A stretch of 64,000 nucleotides of DNA from Phyllobates terribilis. Its lineage: Eukaryota. Within the stretch, counting starts at the first letter, position 1; each line of letters begins with the position of its first letter. This document shows, piece by piece, positions 29,190 through 64,000 of the stretch. The notes beneath the pieces were generated by a model that had not been told where the DNA came from, did no database searches, and saw nothing but the letters and a program-made list of their open reading frames with translations. The position numbers were made by a program, and so were the translations under genes. The DNA is taken from positions 90,830,001 to 90,894,000 of the forward strand of contig NW_027362765.1 in assembly GCF_046119375.1 (NCBI RefSeq), read 5' to 3'.

Positions 29190-32100
29190 CCCCTTTTTTA
29201 GGCCAGAGAGAAATTTATCAAGGATGAGAGGGGCATGGATGTTCTCCCGGGGCTCCCACATTCTCTCCTCAGGACCAAACCCCTTCCAATCTACCAGAAA
29301 AAAGGTTTTTCCTCTTACCCTTTTGGTGGCCAGAAAGTTCTCTACCTCAAACTCGTTCTCAGCGGAAACCGGAGCAGGGGGCGTACCTGTAGACTTGGAA
29401 AAAGAGTGAAGTACCACGGGTTTGAGGAGAGATACATGGAAGGAGTTAGGGATCCGTAAGTTGGCCGGGAGTTTCAATTTATAGGCCACCGGATTGATTT
29501 GTTTGATAACTTCCAGTGGGCCGATGAACCGAGGCCCTAACTTGTAGGAGGGAATCTTGAGCCGGACATACTTGACGAGAGCCAGACTTTATCTCCAGGA
29601 TGGAATTGTGGGGGATCCAGGCGTTTTTTGTCAGCGTGTTTTTTCATCCGCTCGGACGACTGAAGGAGTGCGGATCGGGTACTCTCCCAAATGGAGGAGA
29701 ATTCGCTAACGAGAGATTCCGCAGCCGGATTGTCCACCGAGGTGGAGACGGGAAATGGGATCCGAGGATGCTGACCAAAGACTACAAAAAACGGGGATTT
29801 GGAGGAAGATTCGCTCTCATGATTATTGTAAGAGAACTCAGCCCATGGTAGGAGATCCACCCAGTCCGAATGGTGGGCATTAACGAAGTGCCGGAGGTAA
29901 CTGGTCAGGTACTGATTGATCCACTCCACTTGACCATTGGACTGTGGGTGGTAAGCGGAGGAGAAGTCCAGAGTGACGTCAAGCAACTTACATGTGGCTC
30001 TCCAGAAGCGTGAGGTGAACTGAACCCCACGATCCGACACGATGTGGAGGGGCAGGCCATGGAGACGGAAGATGTGGCGGATAAAGTCTTTAGCCAGTTC
30101 GGGTGCAGACGGGAGACCCGGCAGGGGAATGAAGTGCGCCATCTTGGAAAAGCGATCAGCGACCACCCAAATGACCGTACAACCGGCAGAGACAGGGAGA
30201 TCCGTTATAAAGTCCATAGCTATATGCTGCCACGGGGCAGCAGGTACTGGAAGAGGAAGGAGGCGACCGGCTGGCAGGTGTCTCGGAACTTTGTTGCGGG
30301 CGCAGGACACACAGGTTGAAACAAAGTCTATTACATCCTTGTGCAGGGTAGGCCACCAGTAATGCCGGGTAATGAGCTGGAGGGTCTTTTTCTGACCGGC
30401 GTGGCCAGCTAGTTTAGACGAGTGACCCCAGTGTAGGACCTTCTTCCGATCAGGTACTGTAACGAGCGTCTTACCGGGAGGGAGACGATTTAGATTCACT
30501 GGGGCCACTTGCATTACTCTGGCGGGATCAATGATGTGCTTAGGTTCCTCCTCTAGATCAGATACCAGGAAGGATCGGGAAAAGGCGTCAGCTTTGATGT
30601 TTTTGTCTGCCGGGCGAAAATGAAGAACGAAATCAAAGCGGGCAAAAAATAAGGACCACCGGGCTTTGCGCGGGTTAAGTCTCTGGGCGCTCTGAAGGTA
30701 AGCCAAGTTCTTGTGGTCCGTGTAAATTATTACCGGGTGAAGAGCCCCCTCGAGCAGGTAACGCCACTCCTCCAGTGCCAACTTAATGGCTAACAATTCT
30801 CGGTCTCCAATAGAATAATTGCGCTCAGAAGAGGAGAAGAGTTTGGAGAAGAAGCCGCAGGTTACCATTCTTCCGGAAGGCGACTTTTGGGTAAGTACCG
30901 CTCCGGCTCCAGAGGAGGAGGCGTCAACTTCCAGGAAGAATTGTTTGTTGCTGTCTGGACGATGCAGCACTGGGGCGGAAGAGAAAGCCTGTTTTAAGGA
31001 AAGAAAGGCCTCCTCTGCTTCGGGCGGCCATTCTCTGGGATTAGTACCCTTACGGGTGAGAGCAGAGATTGGGGCAGTCCGGGAAGAGAAGTGCGGAATG
31101 AAGAGGCGGTAGTAGTTGGCGAAACCCAGGAACCGCTGAATAGCTTTCAACCCCTCTGGTCGTGGCCACTTCTGGATGGCAGACAGTTTCTCAGGATCCA
31201 TTCGTAGGCCGGTCTGAGAGATTATATAGCCCAGAAACGGAAGCGAGGTCTGCTCAAAGAGGCACTTCTCATATTTAGCGTAGAGGTGGTTCTGCCTGAG
31301 CAGGACCTGACGAACGTCCCTCCGGTGTGTGAGGAGATCCGGAGAAAAGAGCAAGATGTCGTCCAGGTACACCACTACGCAGGAGTAGAGAAGGTCCCGG
31401 AAGATGTCATTGACCAACTCTTGAAAGATGGCAGGAGCGTTACAGAGACTGAAAGGCATTACGAGGTATTCATAGTGGCCGTCCTGGGTGTTGAATGCCG
31501 TCTTCCATTCATCCCCCTGACGGATAAGGACCAGGTTATACGCCCCACGGAGGTCCAGCTTGGTGAAGATTCTAGCCCCCCTCAGACGGTCAAATAATTC
31601 CGGAATAAGCGGAAGGGGGTATTTATTCTTCACCGTGATCTGGTTAAGGCCTCTATAGTTTATACAGGGACGGAGTGAGCCGTCCTTCTTTTTGACGAAG
31701 AAGAAGCCTGCTCCCGCCGGGGAGGTAGATTTCCGGATGAATCCCCGGGCCAGATTCTCCTCAATATATTCAGACATGGACCGGGTCTCAGCAGCGGACA
31801 AAGGGTAAATGCGCCCACGGGGAGGAGTAGCGCCGGGCATCAGGTCGATTGGGCAGGCGTATGGTCTATGAGCGGGTAATGTCTTTGCCTCCTTTTTATT
31901 AAAGACGTCCGCATAAGACCAATAAGGAACCGGAAGACCAGGTAGGTTGGCTGGAGTAGGAGAAGGACGGACAGGATGGACGGGAACTAAACAAGTCTTA
32001 TGGCAGTCCTGTCCCCAGCGAAGGACTTCTCCGGTCTGCCAATCAAGCACGGGTGCATGTTTCTGAAGCCAAGGTAGGCCTAGTAAAAGGGCGTGAGAGA

Positions 32101-32431
32101 GTCCAGGCAGAACATGAAAGATGATGCTCTCTGAGTGCAGCATTCCCACCTGCAGGGTTATGGATTCGGTGATGAGTTGGATGGGATGTGGTAAGAGGCC
32201 CCCATCCACGGCAGCAACAGATAAGGGTACAGCTAGAGATTTGGTGGGAATGCGGTATTTCTCTACCAGGGACTGAGAAATGAGATTTCCGGCAGCTCCA
32301 GAGTCAAGTTGGGCAAGTTCAAAATAACGGTTCTCCCCGCAGATGATAGAGACCGACAGCAACAGAGATTGAGAGGGTTTACTCTTGTCTAGGACGACCT
32401 CTCTGCGTGATCCTAGACACAGGCGTTTCCC
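29190..32431 (-). CDS. pol: pol polyprotein (PR, RT, RNase H, IN, chromodomain) with one 1-bp frameshift near 29575
   Basis: LDSGA, YLDD, EVDASS, H2C2 Zn finger, HIAMDF...SDRG...QSNGQVE; distal frame FEVENFL...FLVDWKGFGPEERMWEP (chromodomain). Confidence 0.95.
32371..32431 (-). promoter_or_regulatory. -1 programmed ribosomal frameshift signal (G GGA AAC + stem-loop/pseudoknot)
   Basis: Heptamer at 32425-32431; 5-nt spacer; 9-bp stem TGTCTAGGA/TCCTAGACA; the -1 frame is open into pol. Confidence 0.8.
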
Positions 32432-33345
32432 GACCTCTCCGGGCAGGAACGGATCCGGTGCTCCTTACTGCCACAGTAGAAGCAGCTCCCCTCGGCTCGG
32501 CGTAACTCTTGACGGGTTTCGACCTGCATAGGCTCGGGAGAGTGCGCCGGGGGAGTAACGGGAGAAATGACGGATTTCTGGAAGGTAGGGGCTAGACGTG
32601 GAAACTTCCTCTCACGGGTGACCTCTTTGGCGCGCTCCTGGAACCGGATGTCAATCCGGGTGGCAAGGGTTATTAAGTCGTCGAGAGTGGTAGGAATGTC
32701 CCGACCGGCGAGTTCATCTTTAATACGGCCGGACAGACCCTCCCAAAAGACAGACACCAGGGTGTCGTTATCCCAGGCCAGCTCCGAAGCAAGGGTACGG
32801 AACCGTATGGCATATTGGCCCACAGTGAGATTTCCTTGACGGAGGCGTAGCAGAGATGATGCGGATGAGGTCTTCCGTCCTGGTTCGTCGAAGACTTTCC
32901 GGAAGGCCGTGAGAAAGGCTGGCAGGTTGGACACCAGGGGGTCTCCTCTCTCCCATAGAGGATTTAGCCAAGCCAGTGCCTCTCCCGTGAGATGGGACAT
33001 GATAAAGGCTACTCTGGCTCGGTCAGTGGAAAACTGGTGTGTCAACAGTTCGAAGTGCAGAGTGCACTGGTTAATGAAGCCCAGTGCCTGGCTGGGATCT
33101 CCGCCAAAACGAGGAGGAGCGGAGAGGCGGGGACCGGGAAGAGATGCCATGGTGTTGATGGGCTGCGGCGGTGCCGGGGTAGTAAGTGTGCGAGTGGAGG
33201 CCGCTCCCGAAGAGGTAGTCAAAGTGTCCAGGCGGGAGTTAACACTACGCAGGTGACTCAGGATGGACTCCTGTTGGGACCTCTGACGGGAAAGTTCATG
33301 ACATAGGTCCGAGAGCGAGGGAACTTGGGTGCCACCGGATTCCAT
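32413..33345 (-). CDS. gag: gag (Ty3-type capsid + CCHC knuckle), 310 aa, intact
   Basis: PPRFGGDP, FIMSHLTGEALAW, LRQG...YAIRF, CFYCGSKEHRIRSC. Confidence 0.93.
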   Translation of the reverse strand: MESGGTQVPSLSDLCHELSRQRSQQESILSHLRSVNSRLDTLTTSSGAASTRTLTTPAPPQPINTMASLPGPRLSAPPRFGGDPSQALGFINQCTLHFELLTHQFSTDRARVAFIMSHLTGEALAWLNPLWERGDPLVSNLPAFLTAFRKVFDEPGRKTSSASSLLRLRQGNLTVGQYAIRFRTLASELAWDNDTLVSVFWEGLSGRIKDELAGRDIPTTLDDLITLATRIDIRFQERAKEVTRERKFPRLAPTFQKSVISPVTPPAHSPEPMQVETRQELRRAEGSCFYCGSKEHRIRSCPERSGNACV

Positions 33346-33346
33346 G

Positions 33347-33356
33347 GCCCGAGCAA
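33347..33356 (-). promoter_or_regulatory. Self-priming primer-binding site (TTGCTCGGGC)
   Basis: Immediately follows the 5' LTR; no tRNA-type TGG start; perfectly complementary to GCCCGAGCAA located 30 nt downstream of the LTR TATA box. Confidence 0.8.
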
Positions 33357-33358
33357 AC

Positions 33359-34716
33359 TGTAACGGGTCTGGGAGGTGGAACCTCTGAGCAACTATACAA
33401 GGGGGCGGTCCTTGTAAGGAAGCGGGTGGCTCCCAGGGAAGACGGGCCGGTAGTCACGGCAAGTGACAGGGACAGTCTCTGGGTAGAAGGGCAGGTAGTC
33501 ACGGCAAGTGACAGGGACAGTCTCTGGGTAGAAGAGCAGGTAGTCACGGCAAGTGATAGGGACAGTCTCTGGGTAGAAGGACAGACAGGTAGCAGGTGGA
33601 CGCTCCCAGGTGAGCGGGCAAGAGTCTCTGGATGGGCAGGTGGTCACGGCAAGTGACGGCAGAGCCTCCAGGTAGGCTAGCAGGCAGGTAGCAGGAGAGC
33701 GCTCCCAGGTGAGCGAGCAAGAGTCTCTGGACAGGCAGGTGGTCACGGCAAGTGACGGCAGAGCCTCCAGGTAGACTAGCAGACAGGTAACAGGTGGACG
33801 CTCCCAGGTGAGCGGGCAGGAGTCTCTGGATGGGCAGGTGGTCACGGCAAGTGACGGCAGAGGCTCCAGGTAGGCTAGCAGGCAGGTAGCAGGAGAGCGC
33901 TCCCAGGTGAGCGAGCAAGAGTCTCTGGACAGGCAGGTGGTCACGGCAAGTGACGGCAGAGCCTCCAGGTAGGCAAGCAGGCAGGTAGCAGGTGAGCGCT
34001 CCCAGGTGAGTGGGCAAGAGTCTCTGGACAGGCAGGTGGTCACGGCAAGTGACGGCAGAGCCTCCAGGTAGGCTAGCAGGCAGGTAGCAGGTGAGCGCTC
34101 CCAGGTGAGCGGGCAAGAGTCTCTGGACAGGCAGGAGGTCACGGCAAGTGACAGCAGAGCCTCCAGGTAGGCTAGCAGGCAGGTAGCATGTGAGCGCTCC
34201 CAGGTGAGCGGGCAGGCTGGTCCATAGACAGACTGACAGGTGTCCGAAGGCAGACCGTCGGACCGCAGGCTTGCAAGCAGATAAGCGGATATCAGGCAGG
34301 CATCAAGCAGGAATCTGGCAGGTGACTGGCAGGTAACAGGCAGGAATCTGGCAGGTGACTGGCAGGTAACAAGCAGGAATCTGGCAGGTGACTGGCAGGT
34401 AACAAGCAGGAATCTGGCAGGTGACTGGCAGGTAACTGGTAACAGGACCTGAGGGCTGAAGCAGAGTGAAGGCTTTGCAACAACATTGGAGGAGGTGCCT
34501 TATATATGGTGAAGTCCTCCGGCCATTGGCCGGGGACTACTTAGGACGGCGCGCGCGGCCCCTTTAAGAGAGGGGGAGCGCGCGCGTGCCCTAAGCACCG
34601 TGGCCGGGAAACAGCGCGCGCTGCTAGCAGAGCGGGAGGAAGACGCCGGGCACGGAGTGGAGAGGTGAGGGGAACAGCGTCCCTGCCTAGCAGGAGGCAG
34701 GGACGCCGACGCTACA
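33359..34716 (-). repeat. 5' LTR (1358 bp)
   Basis: Homologous to the 3' LTR with extra array units and a 19-bp deletion at the predicted transcription start. Confidence 0.95.
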
Positions 34717-41719: not shown

Positions 41720-48874
<7,155 letters not shown>

Positions 48875-48890
48875 GATTGTATCAATCTAT

Positions 48891-49496
48891 CTAACCTAAC
48901 GCCCATTCCATTGAAGTCCTGATCTTCTGTAACAAAAATAAAATAAAAAAACATCCCTCACTTGTCCGACGCGATGACAATCCAGATTGCCCCACGGCGA
49001 TCTGGGTCACCTCTAGAACAGTCACATCAGCAGTCACTGATGGTATTTTGGACTCTGGCCCCATCTTCACTCTGGAGACAGCTACCGCGAACCACTCCTG
49101 CGGACCATCTTCTTTTAGGAATTGCACATACTCTCTGGGCTGCAAGCTGTGTGAATAGGAGGGAACGGGGCCCCACCTGACGTAGTGAAAGTTCACATAT
49201 AATGTGTGCTTGATGCGTTCCTCCTCTAAGAATTCATCACCGTGCCCCATATTGAAAAATAGCACTATCATCAGTTTGGCCAGATCCTCGCATTCCAGAC
49301 CATCCAACTGGGCCTGCACCCATTCCTTCCTCTTCTTCTTGTCCCAGATCACATCCACGATCCACTGCACCTTGGTGATAGAGGATGCTTGTTTGGGGGC
49401 AGGGGCTACTTTCGGGGTCAGTTGGGAACTCACCGGCGTCTGGGCCCGTAAGGCTTCTAGGCACTTAGCCCTTTCGCGGGCCATGAACCAAGTCAT
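48891..49496 (-). CDS. 201-aa ORF with a divergent cold-shock (OB-fold) domain-like region, in a probable retroelement accessory segment
   Basis: aa ~75-143 [14 protein letters not shown]...LYVNF...[22 protein letters not shown] aligns by eye to the CSD consensus; not database-confirmed. Confidence 0.55.
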
Positions 49497-51506
49497 GGTT
49501 AGGGGCTAAATCTCAGGCTCACGTCCAGCCTCTGACTCCTCCTTAGGGGACTAGGTCACCTTCTCCATCAGGCCGCCTGGCCTCACCTCCTCCATCAGCA
49601 CCATTAACTGACATAACCGTCCTCGCCCGATCTTCTCCTTGGGTGGCTCACTATGCGCCAGGCCTCCTTCGACTACAAAATCTCCCACTCTGCCATTATC
49701 ACTCTTGTCTCAGTGACAGTACCGCACTGTGTTCTCCACGACTTCCAACCAACAAATAGCACTGTCCCTCTCGCCGCTCGGCATCACTTACGTCACTGCT
49801 CTGCCTTTCACTCAGTGGGGTTCTCTTTGATTCACTATCCTGTTTTTCTATCTCCTCCATCCATTTTCCTGAGTCACAATTTACTGGACAGGCCTTTTCA
49901 TTCCACTTAATTTTACTGCAGTGGCCACTCCTCACTGTAGGCTGGCACTTCCAATTCCGACACTCCCTCCAATAGGCGTAACCTCTAGAGGGCTGGACAA
50001 CTCTTTGCACACTTTTGTTCCTTCTGTGTCCATGATGAGTGGGAACTTCTCATTGTTCTGTGCCACTAACTCCCGTTACAAAGTTCATGCTCAGCATCAT
50101 CTTAGAGCAGGTAACGGTCACCATCCTCCATGCAACTCAAGTCTTCTTCTCAGCCCTTTGCTCTTCCAGGTGCAAGACTCAATCTTGCCAACTATGCCAA
50201 GTGTAACGTGGCGCGGGGTGGTAGCCATGGGCAAAGTACTCGTGTTCTACGCCCCGCCACACTACATGAAGATGGGGGTCCTGGCAGGGTATGTGGACTT
50301 AGCATTTGGTGGCGCTACGCCCTTGCAGGCTGCATGTAACCGATGACTTTTTTAGGCCAGGACCAGATGTTTTGCAGTTCAAAGAGGGAGACCACCAGTC
50401 AAAAATAAACTTTTTACTGAACGATAACTTGGCGGGGATAACATACAGTAGTTAGCAGGTACACAACTTGATGAAAATTTCCTTCACAATACATAGCATT
50501 TTCCACACACAGTTTCAATCCCTTCCACTTTTCTCTATCTTCACCATTCCTCACTACTTCACACAACCCAGCTCAGTACTACAGTCCAGCTAGCAAGAGT
50601 CATTTACTCGACCAGTGGTTCCACGTCTTCTTTCCCCTCAAGAGATCTACAGTATGTTGCTAGTATGGCCAGTGCTTAATTTCTCTGTCGCTGATGGAAC
50701 TCTTGCAATGGGGACTCTCTTCTTCTCACGTACTCTGTCCCATCTTGGCCTGTTACGTCTTGGAGTTATAAACTCTTCGCCATACTGGTAAGTGTCCTTT
50801 CCTGGGATCTGTCTCTGATTGGTCACTCTGTCTTTTGGTCACTTCTATCCTTCCTTCTACTGGGATGTCGCTATTTTTTGTCACGGTCTCCTCTCATGTT
50901 AGGGACACCCATGTCATGTGGCACTGCTCAGATCAGACTTTAAGTCTGGTTCCTACACACACTGTACCCAGTCTGATGTTCTGACAGGAAACTGTCTCTG
51001 TGCCTTTAGCCTAGCCCCTCCCACTCTGGGCTAGTCCCAAACTTAACTCTAACTCTCCATACCATCGAGTAACACACCAACATCATTAACGCATATCACA
51101 ATTGACATTACACAATATAACATTACACTTATTCTTCAAGGGGGAACGTGGGCAATATATCAATCTTTTTACATGTATGTATCATATCGCAGCACTCTAT
51201 GTGTGTGGTATAGCTGTTATAGTTATGTGTGTGGTACAGCTGTAATATTTATATGTGCGGTATAGCTGTAATATTTTTGTGTGTGGAATTTCTGTAATAC
51301 TTACATGTATAGTATAGTGAGATGTATGTTACATTTTATAGAGGGGGCAAACTTACTGAAGTTGTAGGTTTTTTAATATGTAAATGGTTTTCTAATACAC
51401 TTTATACTTGCTGCATGTGAGGAAATGCTTAGCTCCAGCATGCAGGTTAGCATAATTTATTTTCTATGGTCATGGTAATGATAAATGGCCCACAGACACC
51501 TTTACG

Positions 51507-59472: not shown

Positions 59473-60016
59473 GTGTCAGAGGTGACAGACAGTTGCCCTG
59501 CAATGGTTTGCAGGAGATCTCCACGTTTAGCAATGCAGACAGCTGCCTAGATAGGAGGCTGTGTTTAGGACCCAGCGACTACCTCCCTTTAGTCTTGGTG
59601 TATATATACCTGGTGTGTCTAGGTGGGCATTGCCGGTTATACGCATTTCTACTTGGAACTTGGCTGAAGCAGCATCACGCCCTCGCTGGAGTTTTGAGGC
59701 CGTGTGCCCTGTTGGAGTTCTTCTAAAGCTGAGTTGTTGTTCCCCTGTGTTGTCTTCCCCTTTTGTCTTTAGAATGCTAGCGGAGGTTGACTATTGCTCA
59801 TCTCCTTCCTCCCCCAGCTATAGCCTTACGCCAGGGATAGTAGGGTGAGGCACGTGATCGACGACAGCTGCGGAGGCTGTATAGGGACGTCAGGGGGAGA
59901 CAGGGTGACGCTAGTCCAGATTAGAAGGTCATCTCTTCCCCCTTTCCCTAGTGTCTGGGCTCCCTTTCCCCTCTGTGTTGCACTCACACCTGGCGTGACT
60001 CTCTGTGTTGCACTCA
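59473..60016 (+). mobile_element. LTR remnant interrupted at its 3' end by the next Gypsy element
   Basis: TGTCAG start, TATATATA box, 16-bp duplicated CTCTGTGTTGCACTCA at 59971 and 60001. Confidence 0.5.
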
Positions 60017-61065
60017 TGTGACACCCCAGGGGTCTGGTTGCCATAGTAATAGAGATATTATGTCTGAGAGCAAGTGGGAGGTTTCTCTGGTCAGGATCCC
60101 TAAGCATGCAACACGGTCCGCCCAGACCTGGGAGGGGAGGAATCTGCCCTTATAAACTGGGTCTGGGGCGGGATTAAAGCAGTCAGAGTCAGAGTGGAGC
60201 TGCAGACAGTTCCAGAGACAGGGAAAGCAAGAACAGGAGCCCTGTAGGAGCAGAGGCAGAAGGCCAGGGGCTTTGAGCAGAGGTATAGCTCGCCCTGGCT
60301 GAGTACACTAAAACCGGACACAGGAGTCCGAGGCTGTGGGGACTGATCTACACCCAGCAGCAGAAACCAGCCGGCAGGGGATTCCAGGTCCTCTGGCCAT
60401 AGAAGCCCGGAGGCTCAGTCACAAAGAAGGGACCAGCGCCGCCATCCAGGAGCGGAGGCTAACAGAAGGCCCCAAGTGACCAGCCATACGGGTGAGCACC
60501 ACACGGTATACTCAGGGACGTGGGCTACTTGTAAACGCTGACAGCAAGGTAGCCAGGAAGAGTGCAGATTAACGGGGAGGCCTACAACTCCACCTGGCCA
60601 GGGGAACTCCTGCTTGCTCGCAGACTGACCAGGCCCCTTATACTAGCCAGTACTCCCGGGAGTGTCTACCTTGTACCATCAGTAAAGACCCTGAACTGCA
60701 CCACACGTTTCTGTGATTCCTTGCCGCACCAGCACCATTAGCACTGGGACACTCACACCATCACTCCCATCATTATCCACACTAGCTGCCCTGAGGCAAT
60801 ACTCCTCCCGTGGGGAGTTATCCCATACTCGGCTGCGCAACCAACATCAGCCTCAGCGGTCGGCAGCGCAGCGGCGGTCCCCACTGACCGCAATCCACGG
60901 GTGGCGTAGTCGGACACTTATTACAACATTTAGACTGCCACTGGTTTGACCACCCTGGGCACGGACCGGGTCACCGCCACACGGAGACTACAACCCCCAG
61001 CATTCTACAACAGGCCCGGTTCCGGGTTCCCCTGCACAACACAGGCCCAGGGGGCGCGTCAACTT

Positions 61066-61084
61066 TGGCGTAGTCGGCAGGATT
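61066..61084 (+). promoter_or_regulatory. Primer-binding site complementary to the 3' end of tRNA-Ser
   Basis: TGGCGTAGTCGGCAGGATT is the reverse complement of ...AATCCTGCCGACTACGCCA. Confidence 0.9.
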
Positions 61085-61524
61085 TCGTGCCCGCAACCAC
61101 CGGGTACTGCGTGCCTGAAAAAGAGACTTTTATACTTACCTGTGGTGAAGTTTCCCGCCGTCCGGAGTCGTTTCCCGCCATCCGGAGCCGATTCCCGCCA
61201 TCAGACGCCATCTTGGACCGTTTCCCGCCGTCTTCTGCCTTCTTCCCGCCATCCGCAGCTGCTTCCCGCCTTCGGACGCCATCTTCGGGACGCCGCGCGG
61301 GAAGAAGAGGGGCGTGGACGCCGAAAGCGTGCGAGATCCGAAGCTCCGCCCCACGCTCCGCCCCACGCTCCGACGCTGCGTAAGGTCCTGGAAGGAAGGA
61401 AGAGCGACGCTGACGTCATCATAGCGCGACGCCAGGTCCTCAACCCTGACGATCGACTGAGGAGCCGCGGCCTACGGAAGAAGAGCATCGCAAGGTAGGC
61501 CACGGTCCACTAGGGGAGAGGAGG

Positions 61525-62508
61525 ATGCCGGATACCGAGGGGAGCTCCACTGCCACAGCCACCACCAGCGCAACCGCTGCAGCAGTCATGCCATTCACCA
61601 TGCCCTATATCCCGGGGGCAACCTGGCTACCCCAGTACTCAGGGGAGTCACATACTCTAAATGACTTTAGAGAAAGACTGGATAGCCTCTTCCAGGTGTA
61701 CCCCCTCACAGAAGAACAAAAAGTGAGCATCCTGGTGGCCCAATTAATCGGGGCAGCCCAAAGGGAGGTAAAGTCCTGGCCACCTGGGAGGAAGAGGACT
61801 GTCAGAGAAATACTAGCCCGGCTGAAAGACACATTTGATACCCGCACCTCAGCCGAAATAAAACCAAGATTTTATGGGTGCAAACAACGGGCACATGAGA
61901 GTATAAGAGACTATGCGCTAAACCTACAAGAGGCCCTGAGAGCCATTAAGCAGGCAGACCCTGACAGCGTGGGAAATGAAGATAAGCTGTTGACTGAACA
62001 ATTTATTGAGGGTCTACTGTGCAATGCCCACCGAACCCAGTTGCGGGCAATGGCCTTACAGGACCCTGACCTGGACTTTGCACAGTTCAAGGACAGAGCC
62101 ATCCGGGTGCTCCGAGAACCGGCACCAGGTGGCGCTGTGACCCACAGGCGCCCTGCTATCACTTACCACCAGGAGACAGCGCCCTTGTCTGCAGGGCCTG
62201 TGGGAGCTGATGCGCAGGCTTTAAACAGTGACCCGGCTACAGACCTGCACCATCAGGTCCAAGAGCTGACTAAGAGCGTTGTCGCGCTAACCAGAACTGT
62301 GCAGTCTTTACGGGTCTCTTCTCCAGGAAAGATCCAGCTGGCATCCGGACCGGAGGACATCCCGTGGCGCCGACTGAAGAGGACCCCACCGGCCAGAGGA
62401 AGACCCAGCGACAGATACAACGAAGACGGATGACCCATCTGCCGCCGCTGCAATCAGCCCGGACATGTAGCAAGGTACTGTCATTTAAACGGGCACAACC
62501 TGGGGTAG
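61525..62508 (+). pseudogene. gag: gag (PNMA-like capsid + CCHC) with one premature TGA at 62431-33
   Basis: LPQYSGE..LNDF, F...KQ...ESIRDYA..L, EQFIEGL; CRRCNQPGHVARYC lies just after the TGA. Confidence 0.85.
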
Positions 62509-64000
62509 AGGGCCAACCCCCAGGCATAAGACCATCAGGCCCATCAAACTGGCGTGATAAATACGTAGGGGGACGTCCAATCTTGCCTGTGGTACTGGAT
62601 GGCATTCCTATGAGTGCCCTACTAGACACCGGGTCACAGGTCACCACCATCCCGTACGTGCTCTTCAAGCAGTACTGGAATGACTCGGACATAACCCGCT
62701 ACCCAGATGACGACCTGAGTATCATCGCCAGCAATGGTCAGCCCGTGCCGCAGGTGGGATTCAAAGAGGTGACCATTAAGATCGGTAAAGTCGAACTGGC
62801 AGCACAAGGACTGATAATAGTGGACATAGACTGTCATGAGAGTCACCCTAGAATAACCTTGGGAACTAATGTGATTGAAAATTGTCTTGCAGAGGTGATT
62901 CTCATTTTACAGCAGGTTGCCAAGAACGCCAGTTCCGGCCAGCAGCGTGTGCTCCAAAAAGAGATCCGGGCACTGATGAAGCGGCAACAGGTGGAACTAT
63001 CTGGTGGTGAGATAGGTAGCGTGAGAATGTGTGACCCGTTCCCTATTGCCATGCCCCCAAAAAGTGAGATGATGATTTGGTGCCGGGCAGCTATTGGTCT
63101 AAGAGGTAGAGACTACCAAGCAGTGGTAGAGCCCGTCTACTCAGACAGTAGGCCCACCATTTTGACAGCACGGGGGGTGGTCGATGTACGCCATGGGAGG
63201 GTGCCCGTTCGCATCATAAATATCGGGGAGAGAGAAGTACACCTGCCCCGGTATGCCACGCTAGCCAAATTGTTCACCATAAACCAGAATTCTGTACAGG
63301 CCGTGGAACCCTTGCCTCCATCTCAACCAGAGGAAGGTAACGGCTCTAAGAAACCAATGGAGGACTGGTGTCAGCAACTGCATTTGGGTACTGACTCCAC
63401 TCCCTCACACCAGAAACAGGGAGTCTATCGGGTGGTTCGAGAGTACGAGAGAGTGTTTAGTAAACACCCGCTAGACTTCGGGCGAGTAAAGGGGGTAGAA
63501 CACCACATCCCCACGGGAGACCATCCTCCCATAAAGGAGAGATACCGACCCGTACCCCCGGCACACTACCAACACGCCAAGGGGATGCTTAGAGACATGA
63601 AGGAGGCTGGGGTAATCAGGGACAGCTGTAGCCCCTGGGCAGCTCCACTAGTCTTAGTGAAAAAGAAAGACAACACCATGAGAATGTGTGTAGACTACAG
63701 GAAGGTCAACCGTATCACACACAAAGATGCGTACCCGTTACCAAGGATAGAAGAGTCCTTAGCTGCATTAAAATCTGCTAACTTCTTCTCTACTTTGGAT
63801 CTCACTAGCGGGTACTGGCAGGTTCCTGTAGCAGAGGCGGACCGGGAGAAGACCGCATTCACCACCCCGATGGGTCTCAGCGAATTTAACTGTATGCCGT
63901 TCGGGCTCTGCAACGCACCAGGAACCTTCCAACGGTTGATGGAATGCTGTCTGGGACACCGGAACTTCGAGACGGTCCTGTTATACCTGGACGATGTCAT
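62484..64000 (+). CDS. pol: pol (protease, dUTPase-like segment, RT), 5' part
   Basis: Entered by -1 shift at T TTA AAC; LLDTGSQVT; SPWAAPLVLVKKKD, CVDYR, LDLTSGYWQ, MPFGLCNAP, LYLDDV. Confidence 0.92.

Follow-up and report, generated by a model that had tools for sequence, protein, structure and literature searches.

Non-autonomous long terminal repeat (LTR) retrotransposons of the TRIM (terminal-repeat retrotransposon in miniature) and LARD (large retrotransposon derivative) types are non-coding by definition. Others contain pieces of host genes, for example maize Bs1 and Katydid-At1, as given in the available text of PMC8616336. Among autonomous retroelements, bird endogenous retroviruses (ERVs) have captured cold-shock domains (CSDs) repeatedly and convergently, with 46 such ERVs counted in the accessible part of PMC12287698; CSD capture by LTR retroelements is therefore not new in general. 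The domain binds single-stranded RNA with low specificity and has two motifs, RNP1 ([YF]-G-F-I) and RNP2 ([YF]-[YF]-H), according to the available portion of PMC7825780. In the present study, we analyzed 64,000 nucleotides of the Phyllobates terribilis genome (contig NW_027362765.1, positions 90,830,001 to 90,894,000; hereafter the window), in which a 201-aa open reading frame (ORF) had been predicted to be a divergent CSD in the accessory region of an LTR element. The locus is an old, decayed and dead copy, 3'-truncated and chimeric, of a non-autonomous LTR retrotransposon of 3.5-5 kb that we call family A. The genome contains several families of such CSD elements, A being old and two others, B and C, young, and their CSD together with a basic helix in front of it evolved under purifying selection along replicating lineages.

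The ORF is a genuine ATG-to-stop frame on the minus strand (49496 to 48891), and the plus strand over the same region is full of stops; the residues quoted in the original prediction are aa ~74-143. It is not one unit, however. Homology to the family stops at ~49039, and the part encoding aa ~152-201 comes from a hairpin-rich repeat that has nothing to do with the family, with 86-89% identity in all three loci fetched (L187-L189), so that these residues are read-through. The length of the ORF also means little, since dinucleotide shuffling of the block produced 204 or more stop-free codons in 23 of 500 trials. Upstream, in-frame stops sever the rest of the family frame in this copy (Table 1). 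The element keeps its 5' LTR and primer-binding site (PBS) and is without a C-terminus, 3' untranslated region (UTR), polypurine tract (PPT) or 3' LTR of its own; the window copy itself encodes no functional protein. The tract taken for a PPT near 51138 lies on the wrong strand, ~30 bp inside the 5' LTR. The neighbouring truncated Tc1 was correctly recognized, as a DDE_3 fragment begins after a gap of 16 bp.

The ORF had been described as non-repetitive, but a six-frame search of the 10.6-Gb P. terribilis genome gave matches at 148 of the 150 candidates scored. About 30 of these are confined to aa 141-201; the others span aa 1-~165 and are mostly ridden with stops. Each genome search scored 150 of 2,638 to 38,711 candidate sites, a small share, and these first-look counts, which are not copy numbers, suggest a high abundance of CSD elements. 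As had been supposed, the ORF, which is multi-copy, LTR-borne and intronless, is not part of a spliced host gene.

A direct repeat pair surrounds the CSD in 35 of 61 CSD loci, and none of these 35 has a gag or pol match inside the pair. Thus, the assignment to an LTR element was right and the copies are linked to LTRs, but they are not linked to gag-pol, and the CSD ORF is the sole gene rather than an accessory one. The family ORF products matched none of four Gag/Pol queries in blastp (no retroviral query was among them), and the long ORFs contained no Pfam domain besides the CSD at E 0.01. The young sister families keep one frame of ~570-740 codons. The ORF lies directly after the PBS, the position of gag, and encodes a long, low-complexity protein with the basic helix followed by the CSD. 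In family A, LTR pairs, PBS and PPT were read in L036 and L048, the PBS is exact in L058 and L063, and a genomic tRNA-Ser(TGA) was found in L077; L072 and L074-L076, also considered as tRNAs, are actually PBS sites of elements, and L077 alone is a tRNA-Ser. The age of this family is seen in its LTR pairs (74-87% identical) and in the comparison of the window with other copies (66-83%). Family B elements measure 3.1-4.1 kb; the two LTRs of a pair are 90-99.5% identical, the target-site duplications (TSDs) are mostly of 4 bp, and there is a single frame of up to ~700 codons from stop to stop. Family C (L100) is 4.9 kb long, with LTRs 99.8% identical and CAAA as TSD; its frame has 735 codons, and the CSD in it reaches a score of 32 bits. 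All 150 scored matches to it are at least 97% identical with a stop-free CSD region. The hallmarks of non-autonomous LTR elements (TG...CA ends, PBS, PPT and TSD) are all present in families B and C, and a genuine PPT sits ahead of the 3' LTR in L036, L048, L052 and L100.

We hold with high confidence that residues ~74-143 are a CSD within an LTR retroelement. The window copy alone gave no match to the Pfam CSD, one chance match and no CSD structure in a sequence search of the PDB, and, in a word-indexed protein search with the whole ORF, 111 candidates with none at E 0.001. Its paralogs fared better in the PF00313 search that had been proposed: 12 of 13 match (stops read as X; E 2.5e-6 to 0.23), with one above the cut-off. 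The Pfam gathering score is 27 bits (passed: 1 of the 13 old paralogs, L089 at 32.5, L100 at 32). A profile of 21 family copies had the YB-1 CSD as its top match (E 7e-5) and CspA next. A first AlphaFold model, from a shallower alignment, left the CSD unresolved (pLDDT 35-53); the second (aa 62-148; 44 sequences) formed a barrel of five strands with a pLDDT of 67.5. For this model Foldseek ranked the CSDs of YBX2 and YBX1 first (E 2e-4, TM 0.70, prob 1.0), and VIA-align placed CspB at the top (Z 10.2; 69 residues superposed with an rmsd of 1.9 A), ahead of UNR, CRHSP-24 and Lin28. An ESM Atlas search with the family C protein was uninformative (best score 0.76). The cold-shock resemblance of the original prediction thus agrees with both the family profile and the predicted fold.

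The RNP1 had been called decayed (HGDEFL), which holds for the window copy but not for the family. In 43 relatives its first position is Y or F in 29 and W in 6 (35 in all), the G is kept in 36 and the F in 38; judged against them, the D-E of the window sequence D-E-F-L is damage in this copy and not a family trait. The window CSD has also lost three residues ahead of strand 1. As predicted, the window ORF has neither a CCHC knuckle nor a YBX tail; the VTGPGG.PVQGS extension of Y-box proteins is absent from the family, and no CX2CX4HX4C knuckle occurs in five family ORFs or the window ORF. AlphaFold predicts the basic stretch at aa 40-66 as helical (block pLDDT 76-89 over aa 41-70). In the alignment this helix is kept in families A and B, and family C has a charged run of comparable kind.

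The comparison of copies that had been proposed bore out frame conservation and purifying selection on the CSD, with an omega of about 0.2-0.3 against about 0.7-1 in controls. In family A, omega is 0.23 in the CSD frame; the other frames gave 0.85-1.46, and the LTR gave 0.66-0.99. Because these copies came mostly from a protein search, copies picked by their leader DNA were taken as a second sample (20 new stretches and 9 earlier ones; the remaining 11 non-self matches were left out). Here, pN/pS was 0.28 for the new copies and 0.33 for all of them, whereas the remaining frames gave 0.83-1.94; 14 of the 20 new loci match the family profile. The basic helix of family A (pN/pS 0.22-0.29) is constrained like the CSD, and across copies the frame in 49497-49700 gave pN/pS 0.36-0.39 with 6-8 stops, against 25-96 stops in other frames. 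For 18 copies of family B, the contrast between variants shared by at least two copies and private variants provides an internal control. Shared variants gave an omega of 0.22 for helix and CSD, 0.24 for the C-terminus, 0.41-0.47 upstream and 0.33 for the post-PBS ORF overall; private variants gave 0.60-0.94 (0.75-0.78 for helix and CSD and for the post-PBS ORF), and the 3' UTR 0.66-1.24 over six frames.

When 1.84 billion representatives were searched with the profile, 38 matched; 20 of these were looked up, and the named sources were Anomaloglossus, Ranitomeya, Bufo, Dendrobates, Engystomops and Pseudophryne. Besides Pseudophryne, relatives thus occur in five other frog genera, and they are probably element-borne too. 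CSD trees (87-89 columns, unrooted, with neither Lin28 nor CARHSP1 among the rows) place the Phyllobates element CSDs, the neobatrachian proteins and the Logan proteins in one group, with support of 97/93 (63 rows) or 94/92 (31 rows). As donor of this group, neither YBX (p-AU 0.139) nor CSDE1 (p-AU 0.195) was rejected by the approximately unbiased (AU) test. Pseudophryne corroboree has 'YBX1-like' proteins (XP_063781241 and relatives; P0020, P0040-P0050) that are multi-copy and lie on several chromosomes. Their CSDs fall with YBX (98/91), and a tree that unites them with the main group was rejected (p-AU 0.013). Two of them have a Ty3/gypsy Gag tail with a CCHC knuckle in front of the YBX-type CSD (Gag E 8e-9), which suggests a second, independent capture; Pseudophryne thus probably represents a separate, YBX-derived acquisition of the domain.

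The CSD elements are probably copied in trans by autonomous Ty3/gypsy elements that are primed by tRNA-Ser and encode a PNMA-type Gag. For family C the link suggested by the sequence is strong: over 576 bp spanning U5, PBS and leader, it is 74% identical to an element of an autonomous family that encodes a PNMA-type Gag, a zf-CCHC knuckle, reverse transcriptase (RT), RNase H and integrase. The element at 60016-64000 of the window belongs to the same family as this likely helper. For family A, the apparent link consists of shared ends only. The CSD elements themselves are without RT, and we assign them to Ty3/gypsy provisionally, through the likely helper; for families A or B the helper may be an ERV, as no retroviral query was among those used. 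No CSD match was found in 12 loci (L155-L166), most of them with pol-bearing elements, or in the autonomous Ser-primed elements of L100/L064, L102, L160 and L164.

The best overall explanation, to which we give slightly better than an even chance, is a non-autonomous LTR element that is copied by a helper and encodes a selected CSD protein acting in cis as an RNA chaperone. That helix and CSD form such a chaperone is, taken singly, somewhat short of an even chance. The protein would bind single-stranded RNA, by preference its own transcript (cis preference); the bound RNA might be stabilized or unmasked in the germline, the protein might aid its delivery to the Gag and RT of the helper, and elements with a working CSD would out-replicate those without it. 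Since selection is seen on dispersed copies, the protein would most simply benefit the RNA that encodes it, and selection would act on the gene of a passenger because the protein binds and protects its own RNA. Host YB-1 supports HIV RNA metabolism, according to the accessible text of PMC6040738.

Several points weigh against this explanation or its supports. A trans-acting protein could be selected too, if a few master copies dominate. In RNP2 an aromatic residue is kept in 42 of the 43 relatives, but the His is present in 2 and replaced by Asn in 34, and the Trp of YBX (KWFN) is found in one relative, the Pseudophryne row; RNA binding may therefore be weak or altered. The absence of frameshifts in family B is not independent evidence, because long open frames were among the grounds on which these loci were picked. 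The leader-picked test is small (167 codon comparisons from 20 new loci, 6 of them aligned over the CSD by blastn), and a few of the 35 repeat pairs (e.g. L039, L062) are probably not LTRs. Finally, when the PBS pattern was used to look for a helper of family A, 26 sites were obtained, and 10 of them were followed over 10 kb together with two further loci; none showed extended homology. L160/L164-type elements share only the TGTAA...GTTACA-CT-PBS ends, and are thus no more than candidates; family B, like A, has only ends and PBS in common with candidate helpers.

FRGY2/YBX2-type proteins mask mRNA in oocytes, and the structures closest to our model are the YBX1 and YBX2 CSDs. An alternative that we consider unlikely is that the protein acts in trans against silencing or masking: it would compete with host Y-box proteins or with piRNA-related RNA handling, and would de-repress the Ser-primed Ty3/gypsy clan including the helpers. 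The repeated capture of the domain (in bird ERVs and Pseudophryne) and the youth and very high copy number of families B and C are in its favour, and suppressors encoded by transposable elements are known, such as VANC21 in the available text of PMC8616336. However, a diffusible suppressor would be a public good from which dead copies profit, so that selection per lineage would be weakened, and we found no likeness to any known suppressor.

We give somewhat less credit to the protein as a packaging adaptor or nucleocapsid substitute, in which the CSD would retain the element RNA and the basic helix would dock on, or co-assemble with, the Gag of the helper. The ORF does occupy the position of gag directly after the PBS, the helix is constrained as much as the CSD, and in Pseudophryne proteins a YBX-type CSD is joined to the knuckle-bearing tail of a Ty3/gypsy Gag. 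The proteins of families A, B and C, however, are without detectable Gag homology or knuckle, and a common origin with the Pseudophryne CSD is rejected by the AU test (p 0.013).

It is improbable that an as yet unsampled autonomous element (Ty3/gypsy or ERV) carries the CSD ORF as an accessory gene, and that the pol-less copies are deletion derivatives which passively inherit the selection signal. Bird ERVs hold CSDs within otherwise complete genomes, and only 150 of the 2,638-38,711 candidate sites were scored; yet gag or pol is seen in 0 of 35 repeat-flanked CSD loci, the 12 loci L155-L166 have no CSD match, and variants shared among the pol-less B subfamilies give an omega of 0.22. Although the window ORF is near chance in length, chimeric and below the Pfam cut-off, it is most improbable that the frame is a chance product of GC-rich repeats, or a retrocopy of a host CSD that plays no part in the element, in view of a codon-position bias and low omega confined to one frame, the CSD fold and a single CSD group across families and species.

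Compared with the described systems, the frog proteins share with the PF00313 proteins (YBX1/YBX2, CspA/CspB, CSDE1/UNR, Lin28) the five-stranded barrel and, in most family members, an RNP1 of the form [YF]-G-F-[IL]. They differ in that the RNP2 His is mostly Asn and the YBX Trp mostly lost, and in forming their own group in the tree. They also have no YBX extension or tails and no Lin28 knuckles, carry a basic helix ahead of the CSD, and are encoded without introns in an LTR element. The bird elements are likewise LTR retroelements with a captured CSD; in the accessible part of PMC12287698 the carriers are retroviral (ERV-A/B, ERV-G), were found through RT and have host-like CSDs (E ~1e-24 to 1e-26 in two rows). 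The frog carriers, in contrast, are gag-less, pol-less and linked to Ty3/gypsy, with a far-diverged CSD as the sole gene, on which selection was measured. With TRIM, LARD and Bs1 they have in common LTRs, PBS, PPT, the absence of pol and dependence on a helper, and Bs1 also carries captured host gene pieces; unlike TRIM and LARD, they keep a frame of ~500-700 codons under purifying selection in several families and species. The autonomous Ser-primed PNMA-Gag elements (L100/L064, L102, L160, L164 and 60016-64000 of the window) share the tRNA-Ser PBS and the TG...CA ends but encode Gag-Pol and have no CSD match. The Pseudophryne 'YBX1-like' proteins also come from a frog, are multi-copy and contain a CSD, which groups with YBX instead. 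A literature search, which did not extend to Repbase, Dfam or subscription journals, found no CSD-coding Ty3/gypsy element, no CSD-coding non-autonomous element and no amphibian CSD element. A gag-less and pol-less LTR element with one selected CSD protein is apparently an undescribed variant.

Table 1. Features of the window at and near the CSD element
Feature	Position	Strand	Remarks
5' LTR, family A	50202..51173	-	~972 bp, TGTAA...GTTACA; flanks the CSD ORF at both ends in further copies such as L036 and L048
PBS complementary to the tRNA-Ser 3' end	50182..50199	-	3 mismatches in the window copy; 2 nt past the LTR
Leader and upstream family ORF	49497..50181	-	broken by stops at 49551-49553 and 49506-49508
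201-aa ORF of the original prediction	48891..49496	-	remnant of the family ORF (aa 1-~151) continuing into another repeat
Basic amphipathic helix, aa 40-66	49299..49379	-	immediately N-terminal of the CSD; AlphaFold helix, pN/pS, alignment
Cold-shock domain, aa ~74-143	49068..49277	-	RNP1 damaged (GDEFL vs family G[YF]GF[LI]); RNP2 YVN
Unrelated AT-rich, hairpin-rich interspersed repeat piece	48891..49042	+	provides aa ~152-201 and the stop codon
Tc1-type transposase fragment (DDE_3), unrelated neighbour	48580..48874	+	Pfam DDE_3 E 2.9e-11; 94% identity to a copy in L038
Formerly proposed PPT, AAGGGGGAA	51138..51146	+	antisense to the element, within the LTR start; not a PPT
Autonomous-type Ty3/gypsy element	60016-64000	+	LTR; exact tRNA-Ser PBS at 61066; PNMA-type gag 61450-62430; pol from 62274

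Elsewhere in the window, long ORFs of 346 and 975 codons at 29540-33453 (minus strand) resemble another gag-pol element. In L078, L079, L085 and L100, the long CSD frame is open upstream across PBS and U5 into the LTR; in family B, omega is 0.65 in this part of the frame. Immediately past the PBS of a family B element (L052:5880-5960, minus strand) are several AAGATGGCG-like motifs, which we take to resemble YY1 sites. Nesting is frequent (L100, L064, L092, L156): a family C element has inserted into gag of the element that probably serves as its helper, a CSD element abuts the 3' LTR of that helper, and another Ty3/gypsy element sits inside a family B copy. The gag-pol ORF beside the CSD copy in L092, considered as a possible autonomous version, belongs to such a nested Ty3/gypsy element with Retrotrans_gag and its own LTRs. 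CSD elements also occur in tandem or in clusters, in L081 (with the middle LTR in common), G000:C3:186266755-186278442 and G000:C11:577079250-577158781. Four unlabelled runs from three studies cover 30 of 30 bins of the family C element; these may be DNA and were not used as evidence. A cluster of intronless CSDE1/UNR-like cold-shock domains (L103-L108, G000:C1:734.44 Mb), presumably CSDE1, is apparently a partly duplicated retrocopy. Two frog gene models (P0004, P0012) combine the family CSD with astacin/CUB or trypsin domains; they are probably chimeras that arose when an inserted element was annotated as part of a gene.

As a rule, non-autonomous LTR elements are passengers without coding capacity, whereas several of these frog families, one of them apparently still amplifying, keep a captured RNA-binding gene under selection. 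Together with the bird ERV captures and the probable second capture in a frog, they make CSD acquisition a convergent trait of retroelements, whose function is now approachable in an abundant, young family. The CSD elements also account for erroneous gene models labelled 'Y-box-binding protein-like' in annotated frog genomes. According to the available part of PMC12822217, recent Ty3 activity goes along with genome size in frogs, and the elements bear on what drives Ty3 expansion in large frog genomes. A speculative reading, which we think worth stating although it is more probably wrong than right, is that neobatrachian frogs contain protein-coding 'satellite' LTR elements in which gag-pol was long ago replaced by one captured CSD protein, that this cassette has since moved between the LTR and leader sets of Ty3/gypsy helpers, and that its product acts as a self-made RNA chaperone or as a suppressor of masking or silencing. 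If this is true, such passengers would reach very high copy number and help to inflate frog genomes, and CSD capture would be a recurrent strategy of retroelements, used in bird ERVs, in Pseudophryne and in the present frog group.
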